From a virus, in IMG/VR virus record IMGVR_UViG_3300037042_001212, positions 1 to 64,000 of that record: 64,000 nucleotides of DNA, one strand, 5' to 3'. Made by a program: the position numbers and the translations under genes. The first letter of the stretch is position 1. Each line of letters opens with the position of its first letter. Below are positions 659-11,863 of this stretch, one piece after another. The notes under the pieces were generated by a model. That model did not search any database, was not told where the DNA came from, and saw only the letters and a program-made list of their open reading frames with translations.

Positions 659-1921
659 TTACACACCACTTAAAATGTCCATTGGCTTCCAGATGTAATC
701 TTCGTTTTCTTCCTCAAAGTAGCTTGTCACCGCCAACTGGTCGATATAGCTCAACGCATCCGGCAAATCGTCGTGAACCCCTTGCGCCGGAAACATAATA
801 AGCTGGTCTACAAAATCAGACCAATCCTTCTTGCTGTTCAGAACAATCCGACCATGCTCAAACCTGCCCTGCAATGACCAGATGATTCTATCAGCTTTCT
901 TTCTGTTGCCATGCGTGAGGTCGATGATGTGGCTGTAGACGTTGTTCTTCCGCATCAAGTCCGACAAATACGGCAGCACAGCATTTTTCAACGCCCCACG
1001 CTCAATCCCAACGCTTATCGGCTGGTAATCCCGCATCTTCATCAGTATCTTGGCAGAAGTCTCGCGTATATCCCAACGTCCATGCTCGATCTCCTCCACA
1101 AACCACTGCCCGTCCTCCGTCACCTTCACCACCGCAATCGCAGACTCGTCCAGGCGCTTCTTCACATTCGCAGCCTGCTTCGCCACTTCCTCAAAGCCAG
1201 CCAAGTCTACCGCTACAAAGTAGCTACCATGCTCCGGTGCCTCGCCATACTTCAGCCATTCCTCTTTGAAGATGTCCGATCCCGCATTGCTGAAGCTTGC
1301 CATGTACTCTTGCTTGAAGGAAAAGCTGGATAGCGTCTTTTTCGCAGACTCAATCTCAGTCGGGTCAATCAACGGATTGTCGGCAGTCGTAAAGTGCCAG
1401 GACTTCCAATCGCTATCCTGCTCATCCTGCCCCAAATTCCACAGGTCAAAAAACCAGTTTCGGCCCTTGGGCGTGCCAATGAACATCGCCGCACCCTTCT
1501 TGTCCGACAGACTGGCCCTAATGACCTGCTCCCAGGCCGCTGGCTTAATGTCCGCTACCTCGTCCAACACCGCATACGTTAGTGACACCCCGCGCAAGGT
1601 ATCCGGTCTATCAGCCCCGCGAACATAAATCCTTGCGCCATTGATCATCGTAATATCAAGATTGTTTACGTGGCTGGACTGAATCACCTCCCGGCCCAAG
1701 TCCAGCAGCAAATCCCAAATGATCTGCCGCGACTGCCCCATCGTTGGCGAGACATACAGCACCGCACTACCCGCCGGGCAGCGCAATGCCTCAATCAACA
1801 AAATCGTTGCCGCCAGCCTAGACTTCCCACACCGCCGGCCAGCAGCAATAACCTTGAACCTCGTCCTGTCGGTGTAGACAGTCTGTTGCCAAGGGAGCAG
1901 TTGGAAGTTCAGGTCAGACAT
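659..1921 (-). CDS. terL: Terminase large subunit
   Basis: Walker A AGRRCGKS, Walker B VLDE, coupling motif GTP, RuvC-like nuclease motifs VDLAG and HDDLPDAL. Confidence 0.95.
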   Translation of the reverse strand: MSDLNFQLLPWQQTVYTDRTRFKVIAAGRRCGKSRLAATILLIEALRCPAGSAVLYVSPTMGQSRQIIWDLLLDLGREVIQSSHVNNLDITMINGARIYVRGADRPDTLRGVSLTYAVLDEVADIKPAAWEQVIRASLSDKKGAAMFIGTPKGRNWFFDLWNLGQDEQDSDWKSWHFTTADNPLIDPTEIESAKKTLSSFSFKQEYMASFSNAGSDIFKEEWLKYGEAPEHGSYFVAVDLAGFEEVAKQAANVKKRLDESAIAVVKVTEDGQWFVEEIEHGRWDIRETSAKILMKMRDYQPISVGIERGALKNAVLPYLSDLMRKNNVYSHIIDLTHGNRKKADRIIWSLQGRFEHGRIVLNSKKDWSDFVDQLIMFPAQGVHDDLPDALSYIDQLAVTSYFEEENEDYIWKPMDILSGV

Positions 1922-2285
1922 CCGTCACATCCCTCGCGTCGCCCGCGTCAATGGTGGCCGGCTCAACCACCGCACCCAACCCCGTAATATTGATCGTCAC
2001 CGCGCTCCGTTGCTGCTTATCCTTCTCAAACAGGCTCACCGGCAAAGTCCTGTCCATGCACAGCTTTATCATCGCAGCCTGCGCCGGGTGGTTGTCGTTC
2101 ATGGCAATCTCAATAGCCTTCGTCACCACTAACTCACCAGCACCATCCAGCAACAGATTCTTTAGATCGTTAATCTTCTGGTGATTGGTCTTTACCAACA
2201 TTGTTGGTGGTCGACCAATCATTTTCGTGCCGAGAGGCCGACCTACGTTGCGCTTGATCTTGGTTTCGTTCTCAGTCATGTCCAT
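1914..2285 (-). CDS. Probable terminase small subunit
   Basis: 123 aa, overlaps terL start, GRP motifs at N-terminus, helical core, C-terminal beta strand (VTINITGL). Confidence 0.7.
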   Translation of the reverse strand: MDMTENETKIKRNVGRPLGTKMIGRPPTMLVKTNHQKINDLKNLLLDGAGELVVTKAIEIAMNDNHPAQAAMIKLCMDRTLPVSLFEKDKQQRSAVTINITGLGAVVEPATIDAGDARDVTDV

Positions 2286-2577
2286 GCCCGTAAAGTAGCA
2301 TATTTCCTAGTTTCACTTTTTTTGTGGAGGGGAGGGTGCAACAATAATTCCGCCGAGCGCCAGGCCCACCCCCCCCCATACCGTCGTTTCTGGAATTTGA
2401 CATAATATGCATTATACGATATTGCGCTGCAACAACCTATAAGAATCAATGAGTTATAGCGGTCAACACACTGTCGATCAGCTCAAAAGCCCATGTTGCA
2501 CTGCATTTCGCATAAAAAGTCCACAACCTGAACGCTCGATGCCCACAGTCTGGACAGTCGGAGGCCGAAACCACCCA

Positions 2578-2616
2578 AAAGTGACAAAAATTGTCACTTT
2601 GTGACAAAAATTGTCA
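2578..2616. repeat. Tandem palindromic sites GTGACAA-AAA-TTGTCAC with 20-bp period
   Basis: aaagtgacaa aaa ttgtcacttt (10-bp arms, 2578-2600) immediately followed by gtgacaaaaattgtca (2601-2616). Confidence 0.85.
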
Positions 2617-2716
2617 GAAAGTGACGCTGATGGTCACTCCCACGCCATCCTACCCTTCCATATTTAATATCACAATACCCTGAAGAACCGCCAGAACGCT
2701 CACCAGTGCATCCGAA

Positions 2717-2938
2717 TCACTTGCCATGGGGCATGGCTACGCTGACGCACTCCAACGTCATGTCGGGCCTATAGCCGAGGTTGTGGGCATGACGATAGAG
2801 ATCGAGCACCACCAAAAATCCGGCGCTAATATCACCCTCACCAGCCTCAAGCAGAATCTGTCGCTCGATCTGTTTAAGAGTCCGCTGGAAATACTTTGTG
2901 TGCAGCAGAGCTGGCCTGCCGATCCCGTCGATTGCCAT
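2717..2938 (-). CDS. Hypothetical protein
   Basis: 73-aa ORF with ATG, same strand as its neighbours; no motif recognised. Confidence 0.35.
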   Translation of the reverse strand: MAIDGIGRPALLHTKYFQRTLKQIERQILLEAGEGDISAGFLVVLDLYRHAHNLGYRPDMTLECVSVAMPHGK

Positions 2939-3023
2939 ATGTCATTACTCTCTTATCAAGTATTGGTGTAAATTGGTGAAGTCCACAATGTATATAACTT
3001 TACCCCAATTTGTCCGCATCCCA

Positions 3024-3139
3024 TTGCCCCTCCCTGCCCCTAGCCTATAGGCTATAGGGGCGATTAGGGGCGATTTAATGGGCTTTTGCCCCTATTGCCC
3101 CTAACCATCCCTAGGGGCGATTGGGGGAGTTAGGGGCGA
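3024..3139. repeat. Iteron-like cluster, putative replication origin
   Basis: About 8 copies of TAGGGGC(G/A)A in both orientations, perfect palindrome TAGCCTATAGGCTA at 3041-3054, AT-rich flank at ~2940-3010, at the 3' end of the primase-helicase gene. Confidence 0.65.
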
Positions 3140-7920: not shown

Positions 7921-8943
7921 ATGAAAATTCCTGAATCAGAGCATACCATTCAAAGCCTGATTGACAAGCACCATGAGGGCCAGGCCGAGGTGCCGCGCCC
8001 ACACCTTGGTGCCAGCACGCTTGGCCACCCCTGCGACCGCTGGCTGTGGCTGTCGTTCCGCTGGGCGGTGCAGCCGAGCTTTCCTGGCCGAATCCTGCGC
8101 CTGTTTCGCCGGGGCCGTGAGGAAGAAGTTAACATTATCAACGACCTGCGTGCCATTGGGATGGACGTTCGGAAAGTGTCGAGCCAGCATCGGGTGGACT
8201 TTGGGAGCCATGTGTCGGGAAGCCTCGATGCCATCATTGATTCTGGCGTGCCGGAAGCGCCGAAGGCAAAACACATTGCCGAGTTCAAAACTGCGTCAAG
8301 AAAGGCATTTGATGATCTGGTCAAGCAGGGCGTAGAGAAGTCCAAGCCAGAGCACTTTATTCAGATGCAGGTTTACATGGCTGGCACAAAGATCGACCGC
8401 GCCCTGTATCTGACCGTCTGTAAAGACGATGACCGCATCCACACCGAGCGAGTCAAATACGATAAGGCTGTTGCAACCAAGGCCATTGAGCGAGGCAAAC
8501 GCATTGCTCTGGCTGACCGGATGCCGGAACCGATCAGTTCAGACCCGTCCTGGTATCAGTGCAAATTCTGCGATGCTCACGACTTCTGCCACGAATCCAA
8601 GATCACCAAGCATGTGAACTGCCGCACCTGCGCCCATGCTACGGCATTGCAGGATTCGACATGGCATTGCGCCAGATGGGATGCTGTAATTCCTCTAGAT
8701 ACCCAAAAAGAAGGCTGTGAATCTCACGTTCTGCACCCTGATCTGGTGCCGTGGAAACGGAAAGACGGGCCGGATGAATGGACAGCAGTTTATGAAATCA
8801 ATGGGGTCGATCTGGCCAACGGCGAGGGTGACGCGAATGTTTACACCAGTAAAGAGTTACTGGCCAACCCTGCTGCCTGCGCTGGTGGAGATCCGTTTGT
8901 CGCTGAGTTGAGGCAGGACTTTGATGGGAGGGTGGTGGGGTGA
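7921..8943 (+). CDS. Cas4-like PD-(D/E)xK exonuclease
   Basis: GAS..GHPCDR, GSLD..AEFKT, QMQVYM, CKFC...C Fe-S-type cysteines. Confidence 0.85.
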   Translation: MKIPESEHTIQSLIDKHHEGQAEVPRPHLGASTLGHPCDRWLWLSFRWAVQPSFPGRILRLFRRGREEEVNIINDLRAIGMDVRKVSSQHRVDFGSHVSGSLDAIIDSGVPEAPKAKHIAEFKTASRKAFDDLVKQGVEKSKPEHFIQMQVYMAGTKIDRALYLTVCKDDDRIHTERVKYDKAVATKAIERGKRIALADRMPEPISSDPSWYQCKFCDAHDFCHESKITKHVNCRTCAHATALQDSTWHCARWDAVIPLDTQKEGCESHVLHPDLVPWKRKDGPDEWTAVYEINGVDLANGEGDANVYTSKELLANPAACAGGDPFVAELRQDFDGRVVG

Positions 8944-9734
8944 TAGAACAAGGGGAATTAAATGAGTTGGCTCTTTTCGCAGGCGCTGGTGGAGGAATTC
9001 TCGGCGGCAAGCTGCTTGGATGGAAAACCGTCTGCGCTGTTGAGTGGGAACCCTATCCAGCAAGCGTATTGTGCGCCCGACAAAATGACGGACTTCTCTC
9101 GCCTTTCCCGATTTGGGATGACGTTCAAACCTTTGACGGCAGACCGTGGCGAGGCATTGTTGATGTCGTATCTGGCGGGTTTCCATGCCAAGACATCTCC
9201 GCAGCAGGAAAAGGAGCAGGAATCACCGGCAGCAGGTCAGGACTCTGGTCTGAAATGGCAAGGATTATTGGCGAAGTACAACCACGCTACGCGTTCGTGG
9301 AAAACAGCCCAGTCCTCACTTCTCGCGGACTTGGAACAGTCCTTGGAGATTTGGCCGCGTTGGGGTTCGATGCGAAATGGGGTGTCGTATCAGCAGCAGA
9401 CGTTGGTGCGCCGCACCTCAGAGAAAGAATCTGGATTATGGCCTACCCCCGATACACGGGGATTTGTAAACGAAGGCAGCATAGCGATGTTGGCGAAAAA
9501 GGCTGGCAGTCATGCGGAATATGTGGCGATGGGTTATCGGGCAGCTGCGAAGAAGAAAGAAAAATATTGGCCGACACCTTCTGCAAGCGACAACAGAGAT
9601 CGGGGCAATCTTTCAACTCCAGCCATTCAGCGCAGATTATCCAAAGGGAAGCAATTGATGCTTTCAATGGTTGTGTCGGAGGTCAGTGGGCAACTGAACC
9701 CAACGTGGGTGGAAAAGTTGATGGGATGGCCTGA
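8940..9734 (+). CDS. C5-cytosine DNA methyltransferase, alpha polypeptide (motifs I-VIII; stops just inside the insertion)
   Basis: FAGAGG (I), GFPCQD (IV), ENS (VI), RERIW (VIII); lacks motifs IX and X. Confidence 0.9.
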   Translation: MIEQGELNELALFAGAGGGILGGKLLGWKTVCAVEWEPYPASVLCARQNDGLLSPFPIWDDVQTFDGRPWRGIVDVVSGGFPCQDISAAGKGAGITGSRSGLWSEMARIIGEVQPRYAFVENSPVLTSRGLGTVLGDLAALGFDAKWGVVSAADVGAPHLRERIWIMAYPRYTGICKRRQHSDVGEKGWQSCGICGDGLSGSCEEERKILADTFCKRQQRSGQSFNSSHSAQIIQREAIDAFNGCVGGQWATEPNVGGKVDGMA

Positions 9735-10272
9735 TGATTGGACTTCGCTGCAACCCATGAGCCATGTTAAAATGTGCTTTTGGCTTATGGGTTCGCACAA
9801 TGGAACGGAAACCGGAAGAAGCGAAGTTCTGCGAGTGTTGCGGATTGGAAATGCAGCGCAAGAGATTCAACGGGAGATTGGAAGACCTGTCGGTGTTCAT
9901 GAAGCGGCGCTTTTGCTCGCTGAGTTGTGCGAACACGCGAACCGACCTGACGAAGCACGGGTATTCATGGCGTGCGCGAAAGCACTTGAAGAAGAATTGC
10001 GAGGCGTGCAGCTACGCGAGGGCACTACAGGCGCACCACATCGACCAAGACAAAACCAACAACGAGCCGGAGAACATCCAGACTCTGTGCAAGCACTGTC
10101 ACGATTTCTGGCACACCACGGCCAAACGTATTGGCAGGACGGTCGCTGGGAGGATGCCACGCTTCGAGTGGCTCATGGGGTGGCCGCTAGGGTGGACAGA
10201 CTTAAATCCATTGGAAACGGACAAGTTCCAGCAGTGGCTGCAACAGCATGGAGAATCTTGAATGCTCCGTGA
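8962..10272 (+). CDS. C5 methyltransferase beta polypeptide in an overlapping +1 frame (WPTP repeats, motif IX, linker, motif X)
   Basis: Own AAGGGG RBS; LNPTWVEKLMGWP (IX) and RLKSIGNGQVP (X); stays open through the insertion. Confidence 0.75.
   Translation: MSWLFSQALVEEFSAASCLDGKPSALLSGNPIQQAYCAPDKMTDFSRLSRFGMTFKPLTADRGEALLMSYLAGFHAKTSPQQEKEQESPAAGQDSGLKWQGLLAKYNHATRSWKTAQSSLLADLEQSLEIWPRWGSMRNGVSYQQQTLVRRTSEKESGLWPTPDTRGFVNEGSIAMLAKKAGSHAEYVAMGYRAAAKKKEKYWPTPSASDNRDRGNLSTPAIQRRLSKGKQLMLSMVVSEVSGQLNPTWVEKLMGWPDDWTSLQPMSHVKMCFWLMGSHNGTETGRSEVLRVLRIGNAAQEIQREIGRPVGVHEAALLLAELCEHANRPDEARVFMACAKALEEELRGVQLREGTTGAPHRPRQNQQRAGEHPDSVQALSRFLAHHGQTYWQDGRWEDATLRVAHGVAARVDRLKSIGNGQVPAVAATAWRILNAP
9711..10164 (+). 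mobile_element. 454-bp HNH-encoding insertion in the methyltransferase
   Basis: Removing it restores both frames: alpha EPNVG|RVAHGVAARVDRLKSIGNG and beta LNPTWV|EWLMGWPLGWTDL. Confidence 0.8.
9764..10261 (+). CDS. HNH (homing-type) endonuclease fused to the ancestral beta C-terminus
   Basis: CECC, FCSLSC, CEAC, HHIDQDKTNN..ENIQTLCKHCH; real start may be ATG 9800. Confidence 0.85.
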   Translation: MLKCAFGLWVRTMERKPEEAKFCECCGLEMQRKRFNGRLEDLSVFMKRRFCSLSCANTRTDLTKHGYSWRARKHLKKNCEACSYARALQAHHIDQDKTNNEPENIQTLCKHCHDFWHTTAKRIGRTVAGRMPRFEWLMGWPLGWTDLNPLETDKFQQWLQQHGES

Positions 10273-11863
10273 ATACCAACAACGCACCATTGACCAACTC
10301 TACGCATGGTTTGAGGCAGGCAACGCTGGCAATCCTTGCTTGGTGCTGCCGACCGGTTCAGGCAAGAGCCACATCGTGGCTGCGCTGTGCAAGGATGCCA
10401 TCCAGAACTGGCCCGAAACCGTTGTGCTGATGCTGACTCATGTGAAGGAATTGATCGAGCAGAACGCTGAGAAGATGCGCCAGCACTGGCCGGGTGCGCC
10501 GCTTGGCATCTACAGCGCCAGCATTGGCCGCAAGGACTTGGGTGAGCCGATTACCTTTGCCGGAATCCAGTCAGTGCGAAACAAGGCAAAGGAGCTGGGC
10601 CATGTCGATCTGGTGATCATCGACGAGTGCCACTTGGTCAATCATAAGGATGAGGGCGGCTACCGCAAGCTGTTGGGCGAGTTGAAGGCCATCAATCCGC
10701 ACCTGCGGGTGATCGGTCTGACCGCCACGCCATACCGGTTGGGGCATGGCCTGATCACCGATGAGCCTGCCCTGTTTGACGATCTGATCGAGCCGGTCAG
10801 CATCGAGGAGCTGGTGTTTAAGGGCTACCTTGCCACCCTGCGGAGCAAGATCACCAAGGCCAAGCTGGACACGACTGGGGTGCATAAGCGCGGGGGGGAG
10901 TTCATTGAGTCCGAGTTGCAGGCCGCTGTTGATACCAAGGAAAACAACGAGCGCGTGGTGCGCGAGATCGTCGAGCTGGCAGACGAGCGTAAAGCATGGT
11001 TGGTGTTTTGCACAGGCGTACAGCACGCGGAGCACATTGCCTCAGTCCTGCGCCAGCATGGGGTGGCAACAGAGTGCGTGCTGGGAGAAACGCCGAAAAA
11101 AGAACGTGAGCAAATAATTGCAGATTTTAAGGCTGGTCGAATCAGAGCATTAACAAACGCAAATGTGCTGACCACGGGATTTGATTACCCTGACATTGAT
11201 CTGATTGCCATGCTGCGCCCGACCATGAGCGCCAGTTTATATGTGCAGATGGCTGGCCGCGGCATGAGGGTCAAGAGCCACACCGATCACTGTTTGGTGC
11301 TGGACTTTGCCGGTGTAGTGGCAAGTCACGGGCCGATCACCAACGTGCAAATATCAAAAAAAAGCGGCACTGGCAACGGAGAGATGCCGGTCAAGGTCTG
11401 CGACAAATGCGGAGAGCTTGTCCATATTTCGATAATGATCTGCCCGGCCTGCTTGCATCCATTCCCTGAGCCTGAGCACAAAAAGCTGGAACTGCACCAC
11501 GATGACATTATGGGCTTAGAAGGCAAAGACCTTGAGATTAAAAGCTGGAACTGGCGCATTCATACCAGCAAAGCAAGTGGGAAACTGATGCTGGCCTGCA
11601 CGTATTACGGTGACTTGTCTGATAAGCCAATAACCGAATACCTGCCGGTGCTGCATGACGGCTATGCAGGGCAAAGGGCAATGCAGCAATTGTTCACGAT
11701 GGCCGCATCGTCTCGTGCCAATCTTGCCCCGGCATACACCCTGCAAGATGAAGATTCGTTGAATTATATTTCAACAGAGATGAGCAATTCAGAGCCGCCA
11801 AAGCTGATTGAATACCGCAAGGATGGGAAGTTCTTTCGAGTCATTAAAAGGAATTGGGAATGA
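10262..11863 (+). CDS. SF2 DExH helicase (RadD/YejH-like) with zinc finger
   Basis: LREYQ, PTGSGKS, DECH, TAT, TTGFD, QMAGRGMR, CDKC..CPAC. Confidence 0.92.
   Translation: MLREYQQRTIDQLYAWFEAGNAGNPCLVLPTGSGKSHIVAALCKDAIQNWPETVVLMLTHVKELIEQNAEKMRQHWPGAPLGIYSASIGRKDLGEPITFAGIQSVRNKAKELGHVDLVIIDECHLVNHKDEGGYRKLLGELKAINPHLRVIGLTATPYRLGHGLITDEPALFDDLIEPVSIEELVFKGYLATLRSKITKAKLDTTGVHKRGGEFIESELQAAVDTKENNERVVREIVELADERKAWLVFCTGVQHAEHIASVLRQHGVATECVLGETPKKEREQIIADFKAGRIRALTNANVLTTGFDYPDIDLIAMLRPTMSASLYVQMAGRGMRVKSHTDHCLVLDFAGVVASHGPITNVQISKKSGTGNGEMPVKVCDKCGELVHISIMICPACLHPFPEPEHKKLELHHDDIMGLEGKDLEIKSWNWRIHTSKASGKLMLACTYYGDLSDKPITEYLPVLHDGYAGQRAMQQLFTMAASSRANLAPAYTLQDEDSLNYISTEMSNSEPPKLIEYRKDGKFFRVIKRNWE

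Follow-up and report, generated by a model that had tools for sequence, protein, structure and literature searches.

How can a homing-endonuclease gene settle in a methyltransferase gene, in a length that breaks the reading frame, and leave the enzyme apparently usable? The question is raised by a locus in the window, by which we mean the whole 64,000-nucleotide stretch analysed (IMG/VR virus record IMGVR_UViG_3300037042_001212, positions 1 to 64,000). The reading that we favour, with a probability of roughly three in four, is that a phage C5-methylase encoded in two overlapping frames received an HNH cassette and that its motif X was transferred from the alpha chain to the beta' chain. The features on which the argument rests are collected in Table 1.

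Table 1. Features of the methyltransferase locus and its insert (window coordinates)
Feature	Position	Strand	Remarks
alpha' ORF, catalytic chain	8940..9734	+	264 aa, motifs I-VIII; Pfam DNA_methylase 1e-31; phrog_363 3e-59
beta' ORF	8962..10272	+	436 aa, +1 frame; domain order: N-terminal domain, WPTP-type target-recognition region, motif IX, ~150-aa spacer (HNH+2 frame), motif X
Variable target-recognition cassette of beta	9445..9710	+	WPTP at 9439 and 9568
Motif IX as now used by beta	9694..9744	+	LNPTWV/EKLMGWPDDWT; second half (after the slash) insert-derived
Insert	9711..10164	+	454 bp, 3n+1; diverged beta-tail copy (about 9711-9805), then HNH gene
HNH ORF	9764..10261	+	165 aa, third frame; Zn-finger module, then HNH core (HH..N..N..CxxCH)
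Dual-coding stretch	9800..10163	+	about 364 bp; HNH in one frame, beta spacer in HNH+2
Old shared 3' end	10165..10272	+	motif X in beta' frame (RVDRLKSIGNGQVP); GNGQV at 10213-10227

In the proposed course of events, the ancestral gene would have encoded two chains: alpha, which is catalytic and has motifs I-VIII and normally also X, and beta, read one base out of frame, which recognises DNA and has WPTP repeats as well as motif IX. A 'hidden' homing-endonuclease cassette of the HNH type, itself mobile, would have been copied into a site that separates motif IX from motif X. Besides the HNH gene, which lies in the third frame, it would have brought a diverged version of the shared 3' segment, placed ahead of that gene. 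Since the cassette is 3n+1 long, alpha would end just inside it, and beta would read through the HNH gene and gain motif X. The HNH+2 frame would then be translated as a spacer of about 150 residues in beta', and the resulting enzyme would consist of alpha' (I-VIII) and beta' (target-recognition region, IX, spacer, X), a motif distribution like that of M.AquI, with the genes still overlapping.

The two-frame methylase is a family trait. Among 72 complete relatives in IMG/VR, about 65 have both frames open end to end, whereas the third frame closes after 24-39 codons; for the given alpha protein, an open +1 frame has a probability of at most 1.4e-3, and in 98 of 98 loci an AAT codon preserves the beta ATG. 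In the window, all three ORFs announced by an earlier, sequence-only reading (overlapping alpha and beta, with HNH in a third frame) were found, the host being a two-frame C5-methylase. The GTG start of alpha' shares bases with the stop of an upstream Cas4-like exonuclease (GTGA), and its catalytic residues (FxGxG, GFPCQ, ENS and RxR) are invariant in 33 aligned relatives, 11 of them insert-bearing. Residues 41-262 of beta' match phrog_1008 (1e-21). Within beta, the target-recognition cassette differs blockwise from that of L035, an allele that is 98-99% identical elsewhere.

Comparison with insert-free alleles defines the insert. Removal of 454 bp had been predicted to give a particular junction and to restore both frames, and four empty alleles (L035, L043, L075 and L097) show that very junction: aligned to them, the window has a single gap of exactly 454 nt (window 9710-10163), whose boundary can slide by 1 nt (9710/11-10163/64). 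The empty-allele junction reads ...CCAACGTGGG T/CGAGTGGCT.ATGGGG (slash, the joint), and the DNA there encodes ...LNPTWVEWLMGWP. An assembly error is contradicted by contigs from four independent studies that bridge the junctions, and by 27 IMG/VR loci in which a C5-methylase gene harbours a relative of the HNH, the window's own layout recurring in 21 of them. Empty and filled alleles are both present as DNA in the same metagenomes, with empty-site joints in the DNA runs. An HNH is present in only 3 of the 80 closest alpha relatives; L035 has flanks 98-99% identical to those of the window, yet no insert, and one target-recognition class was found both with and without it.

At its 5' end, the insert is similar to the host sequence that follows the insertion site (EKLMGWPDDWTSLQP... 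from 9712 onward against EWLMGWPLGWTDLNP... from 10165 onward). The first ~30 nt had been thought to recode the second half of motif IX. The insert does supply EKLMGWPDDWT, but the copy is longer than that: its first ~95 nt (EKLMGWPDDWTSLQP...) form a diverged copy of the entire beta tail, and the similarity covers all of the ~31 aa. In related loci, EKLMGWP lies at -52 nt relative to the HNH ORF start. As to the proposal that the element recodes its own target site, the sequence shows that the entire shared 3' segment has been duplicated and has diverged; a recoded target would be an interpretation of this.

With the insert in place, the read-through frame is beta upstream; downstream it is the one in which empty alleles encode motif X of alpha. 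The 454 nt are 3n+1 and not a multiple of three, and the same polypeptide does not continue on both sides. As the earlier reading had it, alpha stops 7 codons into the insert, at the TGA of 9732-9734, and motif X is thus absent from alpha'; beta crosses the whole insert stop-free, gains motif X and outruns the alpha' stop by 538 nt in the window. The region 10165-10272 matches the C-terminal end of phrog_363, and its GNGQV is invariant across 13 beta' sequences. The old beta-tail reading of this region survives in the HNH frame only, the HNH ORF continuing from 10165 into EWLMGWPLGWT.... The old beta tail has passed to the HNH, as the earlier reading stated, in the window and in L011, in which alone such a fusion occurs; this is incidental, because the other 17 distinct relatives have a stop at the junction.

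The inserted ORF carries the marks of an HNH endonuclease. Its best PHROG match is phrog_1271 (3.9e-10), with 17 other families named HNH endonuclease also matching, and its Pfam HNH match (4e-4) misses the Pfam cut-off. The invariant columns are H79, H80, N88, N92, C97, C100, H101 and H105, and the structure model shows a beta-beta-alpha core (strands 76-80 and 93-97, helix 98-110; pLDDT 75-86). A Foldseek search of the PDB with this model returned no row at E<=1e-3 (best E = 0.064, the weak top rows being mostly HNH nucleases), and a PDB sequence search with the ORF gave nothing under E = 0.4. Its conserved start is probably the ATG at 9800. A search for a recognisable ribosome-binding site or promoter for the HNH found none, and a scan of 8600-10500 found no promoter and no plus-strand terminator. 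The nuclease would cut empty alleles and spread by homing, with co-conversion of the neighbouring target-recognition region.

If the insertion had simply truncated alpha, the methylase would be dead and the long beta frame a leftover awaiting decay. Phage methylases are often dispensable (PMC11855218, discussion), and two loci look damaged: L015 has a frameshift near motif IV and L105, which belongs to the second HNH family, has one stop within its spacer. The record of the window-type cassettes speaks against this account. In 19 distinct cassettes there are zero stops from motif IX to motif X in the read-through frame, although they differ at about 17% of nucleotides; changes at HNH codon positions 1, 2 and 3 number 50, 57 and 120, and not one of the minimum of 120 third-position changes makes a stop. 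T occurs at 0 of 695 stop-prone third positions against 309 of 1585 elsewhere, a count over 19 cassettes whose HNH are 72-95% identical, many of them kin and hence not independent. In the window itself, T occupies 0 of 46 at-risk third positions and 19 of 119 elsewhere (Fisher p = 0.002), and synonymous resampling of the HNH ORF gives a probability of 5e-5 that the beta frame is open; across loci the same resampling gives 5e-5 to 1e-3 per locus, so that an open frame by chance has a probability of at most 1e-3 at each. The HNH+2 frame is open in 27 of 27 loci. The alpha catalytic residues and motif X are also invariant, and we consider a dead methylase very unlikely. The beta read-through of the HNH gene is, by this pattern of substitutions, under selection against stops.

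As the HNH diverged, the frame thus stayed open and the insert length stayed 3n+1 (454, 460, 391 and 373 bp). Stops, had they been common in homologous inserts, would have spoken against the sequence-only reading; 19 of 19 distinct cassettes are free of them. Amino-acid identity is 83% for the HNH and 67% for the spacer. Because the HNH is the more constrained frame, the element appears to be alive and the spacer merely kept open. Decay of alpha downstream of motif VIII, expected in insert-bearing loci, is seen only in L007/L008 and L026; in the remaining ones alpha is open up to the junction, including through the target-recognition region, despite not reaching motif X, so that either relaxation is not visible or alpha still requires that segment.

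An unrecognised self-splicing element that removes the 454 nt from the RNA would restore normal alpha and beta and make the read-through irrelevant. Exact excision would indeed restore both frames, and unorthodox phage introns exist, as far as they are cited in PMC11855218. A scan of 8700-10500 against Rfam, however, gave no match at E<=1, and the HNH ORF occupies nearly the whole insert and crosses its 3' boundary, so that a ribozyme core, even of an undescribed kind, is unlikely to fit in. Were the RNA spliced, strong selection to keep the spacer frame open would serve no purpose. DNA runs contain the joined form, which therefore exists as an allele. One RNA-library contig of a relative of ~92% identity keeps the whole insert unspliced, possibly through DNA carry-over, the RNA runs having covered only small shares of the stretch. 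For an intein, no Hint or intein Pfam match was found in beta at E<=0.1, and the spacer is modelled as helices, unlike the Hint fold. Splicing is accordingly the least probable of the alternatives weighed here, and the RNA of the locus is presumably not spliced.

Modelling of the alpha/beta complex, which had been suggested as a check, is consistent with the transfer of motif X. The complex is predicted with an ipSAE of 0.91 against 0.00 for the best control (the mark used for this score is reached by 58 of 80 solved complexes and by 2 of 110 mismatched pairs), a score that was obtained with our own alignments as input and that may be a memory of monomeric C5-methylase structures. The runs share at least 83% of contacts, with a partner pLDDT of at least 73. 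In the model, motif X of beta (409-434) docks onto motif I (15-27) and motif VIII (146-167) of alpha, and motif IX of beta (253-268) contacts alpha 37-52. On the favoured reading, alpha' and beta' together would methylate DNA. Whole beta' modelled alone by AlphaFold2 is poor, and its mean pLDDT of 41.7 means that this model says nothing on the N-terminal half or the target-recognition region.

The spacer might also be held open for another reason, as a folded domain with its own role (e.g. regulating or assisting the nuclease) or by ribosome traffic for HNH expression. HNH+2 is always the read-through frame, whichever supplies it, alpha, beta or a single-chain methylase, and residues 255-345 model as a five-helix bundle (pLDDT 67-84, from only 13 sequences). 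The spacer nevertheless evolves faster than the HNH; Pfam gives it no match, only sub-threshold TPR noise, and in a wide structural search with the beta' model it matches only generic helical bundles (Z<=6.5), so that its fold is not assignable. In every case, moreover, the open frame joins host motifs on either side. We regard a separate role for HNH+2 as unlikely, if somewhat less so than the two alternatives above. Such a role is compatible with the main explanation.

The transfer of motif X to beta' is not the only arrangement in the family. A second HNH architecture, with another domain order, occupies the same site with 3n+1 inserts of 373 and 391 bp, so that 3n+1 is constant over inserts of 454, 460, 391 and 373 bp and two HNH domain orders. 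More distant relatives have the 3n solution, in which alpha reads through instead of beta; L027 and the phiKX1 type are examples of 3n loci. L015 was considered as a single-chain host and rejected, its alpha and beta frames having been swapped through an indel near motif IV. We give an even chance to the idea that HNH+2 is an evolved, portable 'pass-through' spacer, with which a 3n insert lets alpha keep X and a 3n+1 insert lets beta take it, an EcoHK31I-like enzyme becoming AquI-like without loss of function. If so, a selfish element with at least two HNH architectures would repeatedly re-partition the motifs of a heterodimeric enzyme, and motif X, carried in trans behind a 150-residue spacer, would be functional.

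Several known systems share parts of this arrangement. MobE is a free-standing HNH endonuclease in nrdA of phage Aeh1 that splits its host gene into functional pieces. Like mobE, the window has a non-splicing homing endonuclease gene within an enzyme gene, which would be tolerated because the pieces reassemble; mobE, however, cuts nrdA into two separate ORFs, whereas in the window translation of one host frame would continue across the nuclease gene. C5-methylases tolerate division into separate chains, as M.AquI, M.EcoHK31I and fragment complementation demonstrate (PMC3404938, PMC2836561). M.EcoHK31I is described as a natural heterodimeric C5-methyltransferase with beta nested in an alternative alpha frame (Lee, Kam & Shaw 1995, via PMC2836561 and PMC3404938). 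By those accounts, it resembles the window in making two chains from two frames of one DNA stretch and in having motif IX on the alternative-frame chain; its alpha comprises I-VIII, X and the target-recognition region and its beta motif IX only, whereas in the window beta also carries a WPTP recognition region, has acquired motif X through the insertion and extends past alpha. The two are likened by layout. In M.AquI, according to the same literature, alpha carries I-VIII and beta IX-X (Karreman & de Waard 1990; Pinarbasi et al. 2002, via PMC3404938), the distribution that alpha' and beta' share; as described there, its genes are separate, adjacent and non-overlapping, without a IX-X spacer and without an internal nuclease gene, unlike those of the window.

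The closest precedent is the ShiLan domain and the Pacc40 gp60 insertion, in which DNA methylase genes of actinobacteriophages conceal an out-of-frame HNH (Arsenault, Gosselin & Gogarten 2025, PMC11855218; Gosselin et al. 2023, PMC9957025). A phage methylase is read there stop-free through an out-of-frame HNH, and the 5' end of the insert mimics the sequence downstream of the site (PMC11855218). The sequence-only reading knew of no description of this strategy, a claim that has to be withdrawn: the core idea, recoded flank included, was already in print in 2025. The likeness extends to a sporadic insert in a phage methylase, a stop-free host frame, a Zn-finger-containing HNH encoded in a different frame, the lack of a recognisable intron or intein signature, first insert residues that mimic those just downstream of the site, and a host protein presumed to carry the insert as a loop. 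ShiLan/Pacc40, however, have a one-polypeptide host and a 3n insert, and the same chain continues; the window has an alpha/beta host and a 3n+1 insert, its other subunit reads through, and motif X changes owner. The relative frame of the HNH also differs, the read-through being HNH+2 in the window, and a search for a close mycobacteriophage relative of the window HNH gave no match at E<=1e-3. It is well supported that the new part is the frame switch that hands motif X to beta, the general strategy being known since 2025.

The locus holds about 364 bp of two-frame coding inside an already dual-coding gene, with three frames in use on one strand within 1.3 kb. Gene callers see one long 'hypothetical' or 'methyltransferase' ORF in such a place, and the nuclease and one subunit are missed. 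The coexisting 3n and 3n+1 forms amount to a natural experiment on the supply of motif X, in cis and in trans, in C5-methylases. On the favoured reading, the locus illustrates one way for a homing endonuclease that does not splice to be tolerated without restoring the host gene: the shared 3' segment is duplicated, each copy keeps one of its two readings, and a motif of the catalytic domain passes to the other subunit.

Three overlapping ORFs, all on one strand, were found at 8940-10272 of the window, as the sequence-only reading had described. Alpha matched Pfam PF00145 (1e-31) and phrog_363 (3e-59). No Pfam match was obtained for beta; its residues 41-262 matched phrog_1008 'DNA methyltransferase' (1e-21), and it carries WPTP elements, motif IX (LNPTWVEKLMGWPDDWT) and, at its extreme C-terminus, motif X (RVDRLKSIGNGQVP). 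The HNH ORF hit 18 PHROG families annotated as HNH endonuclease, the best at 3.9e-10, and gave a weak match to Pfam HNH (4e-4); it is present as a single copy in the source virus record (80.5 kb, judged complete). The methylase locus is flanked by genes for a Cas4-domain exonuclease and a helicase, and a promoter/terminator consensus scan gave no hit within it. Packing is tight: the alpha GTG and the exonuclease stop overlap within GTGA at 8940-8943, and the helicase gene starts with the ATG at 10262, 8 nt ahead of the beta stop and immediately adjoining the HNH ORF stop (10259-10261).

Coordinates of the methylase and HNH reading frames in the window and of the second-architecture HNH genes in three IMG/VR loci
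Feature	Location	Strand	Description
alpha	window 8940-9734	+	264 aa; N-terminal part of C5 cytosine methyltransferase, motifs I, IV, VI, VIII
beta	window 8962-10272	+	436 aa, +1 frame
HNH ORF	window 9764-10261	+	165 aa, third frame
second-architecture HNH	L087 1965-2324		same methylase site, insert 391 nt = 3n+1; beta reaches motif X
second-architecture HNH	L100 2678-3025		same methylase site, insert 373 nt = 3n+1; beta reaches motif X
second-architecture HNH	L105 2867-3244		same cassette as L087/L100; stop in spacer frame

Alignment with four alleles lacking the insert (empty alleles), three of which have the window's recognition-cassette class, left a single gap at 9710-10163, at the junction predicted from the sequence alone. 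The insert is 454 nt, that is, 3n+1, and the frame consequences foreseen for it were confirmed: alpha terminates at TGA 9732-9734, and beta crosses the HNH gene in the HNH+2 frame and reaches the codons that specify alpha motif X in empty alleles. At its 5' end the insert repeats, in diverged form, the second half of motif IX and the entire beta tail. The window HNH frame runs on into the old beta tail; this inheritance, also part of the earlier reading, was found again only in L011; in the 17 remaining distinct cassettes a stop occurs at the junction, so that the fusion is incidental. L035, an IMG/VR locus without the HNH, shares 98-99% identity with window 8800-9444 and 10165-10285 and has an unlike recognition cassette. 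Between these flanks the cassette is swapped as a block (window 9445-9710 vs L035 2506-2875), with the breakpoint exactly at the first WPTP, which suggests cassette exchange or co-conversion along with the HNH.

The insert is not an artefact. The left junction is bridged by DNA contigs from two studies, one with 0 differences over 639 nt, and the whole insert is spanned by one further contig and by one RNA-library contig (~92% relative). DNA runs also contain joints skipping 454 nt; both alleles, empty and filled, therefore exist side by side as DNA.

The openness of the beta frame was examined in 27 usable loci from an HNH-protein search of IMG/VR (42-95% identity). Across the HNH ORF, the HNH+2 frame was open in 27/27 loci and the HNH+1 frame closed in 27/27. 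Together with the window, 21 of these loci represent 19 distinct cassette sequences with the window layout (EKLMGWP at -52 nt from the HNH ORF start, GNGQV at +449), and no stop lies between the two motifs in any of them. A stop arises in HNH+2 if an HNH codon ending in T precedes a codon beginning with AA, AG or GA. In the 19 cassettes, T occupied 0/695 of these stop-prone third positions vs 309/1585 of the remaining third positions, and in the window by itself 0/46 vs 19/119 (Fisher p = 0.002). By synonymous resampling, the HNH+2 frame would be open by chance with a probability of 5e-5 in the window and of up to 1.2e-3 in relatives. In 15 cassettes, minimum changes at HNH codon positions 1/2/3 were 50/57/120, so that third positions dominate, and amino-acid identity was 83% for the HNH vs 67% for the spacer (the part of the beta chain read from the HNH gene), with nucleotide identity of 83%. 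This bias and this difference mark the nuclease as the more constrained reading, with the spacer merely held open. Alpha catalytic residues and beta GNGQV are invariant in insert-bearing alleles. RNA splicing of the insert is unlikely, because there would be no point in selection for an open spacer if the RNA lost the insert; Rfam gave no match at E<=1, and the HNH ORF occupies almost all of the insert and extends over its 3' boundary.

The two-frame arrangement was also found in insert-free phage homologues. In a Caudoviricetes metagenome genome, Acinetobacter phage ABMM1, Salmonella phage S9-5 and Ralstonia phage Gerry, both frames are open over the full 684-915 bp, the first with motifs I-VIII plus X, the +1 frame with MSWLFSQALVEEYS..., WPTP... 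and LNPxWVEWLMGWPxGWT in succession. A search of IMG/VR with the N-terminal part of alpha gave at least 600 matching stretches; of the best 80 loci, 72 are complete, and in ~65 of these both frames are open throughout, with lengths within ~5 codons. The third frame is closed after 24-39 codons. Openness holds across recognition cassettes of widely differing length, and with the alpha protein held fixed, the +1 frame was open in at most 0.14% of synonymous resampling trials. The Asn codon generating the beta ATG was AAT in 98/98 loci. On this comparative evidence, two-frame coding is a trait of the methylase family. The principle is that of M.EcoHK31I, whose beta chain is read from an alternative frame of alpha (PMC2836561, PMC3404938); unlike in M.EcoHK31I, the recognition region, besides motif IX, is here on beta. 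Two-frame alpha/beta methylases are very common, and in many phages the beta ATG lies 4 nt after the alpha ATG (ATGAATGAG). Public annotation gives a single frame: three phages have alpha, and Ralstonia phage Gerry has beta under the name 'hypothetical protein'. Loci L028 and L029 (about 1100-3100) carry a different, well-known methylase family that is likewise two-frame (N-terminus YNEFDP/YNEIDP..., C-end DWLFCRDGKWRPV...RLRGYGNAIV; GWPTP repeats and SRWLMGLP in the +1 frame).

In C5-methylases the large domain comprises motifs I-VIII together with X, the small domain the recognition region plus motif IX; M.AquI is naturally split, with I-VIII on one chain and IX-X on a second, and fragments of monomeric enzymes complement each other (PMC3404938). 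The complex of alpha 1-264 with beta 150-436 was predicted alongside three controls. It scored an ipSAE of 0.91 vs 0.00 for the best control, this mark being reached by 58/80 solved complexes and 2/110 mismatched pairs; contact agreement between runs was at least 83% and partner pLDDT at least 73. The modelled complex places beta motif X (residues 409-434) on alpha 15-27 (motif I), 119-121 and 146-167 (motif VIII), and beta motif IX (residues 253-268) on alpha 37-52. These predicted contacts are those that an enzyme assembled from the two chains requires, which supports binding and does not show it; the score may reflect memory of monomeric structures, and own alignments were used for the prediction. 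The beta chain alone gave a poor model, except for a five-helix bundle at residues 255-345 (window 9724-9996; pLDDT 67-84), for which a structural search gave no specific fold match. The spacer models as a compact bundle despite evolving faster than the HNH.

Variant cassettes were found as well. In a second HNH architecture the domain order of the window HNH is reversed, the HNH core preceding the Zn ribbon; it shares only the 40-54-residue core with the window HNH and again gives 3n+1 inserts. A 3n form occurs in farther relatives of the window HNH, namely L027 (67% identity), L028 (52%), L029-L034 (42%) and Komagataeibacter phages phiKX1 (about 1800-3100) and phiKX2 (52%). There, the HNH lies in the beta frame immediately after the beta stop, or in L028 is fused to beta without a stop, and alpha, as before the HNH+2 frame, crosses the insert and retains motif X. 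The abutting beta stop and HNH start suggest translational coupling. In L027, alpha has a WWxxEPxxG..DG segment on either side of the insert. Staphylococcus phage CUB-EPI_14 (1345-3150) encodes a single-chain methylase of 601 aa, annotated DNA-cytosine methyltransferase, whose +1 frame contains, between the recognition domain and motif IX, a related HNH with 33% identity to that of the window; the phage genome is AT-rich with other frames full of stops, and the host frame is open for ~150 codons. In L015, an indel near motif IV (about 1850-1900) exchanges the alpha and beta frames mid-gene; this is a sequencing error or else marks an inactivated copy.

The interpretation offered by the sequence-only reading is largely borne out by the comparative tests that it proposed; its claim that the strategy was undescribed was too strong. 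Arsenault, Gosselin and Gogarten 2025 (PMC11855218), in wholly computational work, described the 'ShiLan domain' and a second such case in Pacc40. The ShiLan domain is an insertion that occurs sporadically in mycobacteriophage methylases, is free of stops and has an HNH encoded in its other frame; it lacks intron or intein features, and its first 11 residues are similar to the 11 that lie downstream of the site. Because the ShiLan domain shows both the core strategy and the recoded flank, these were already published. The window adds the 3n+1 form, where a different chain does the reading and motif X passes from alpha to beta, together with evidence for the conservation of this form, its recurrence with a second HNH architecture and its coexistence with the 3n form.
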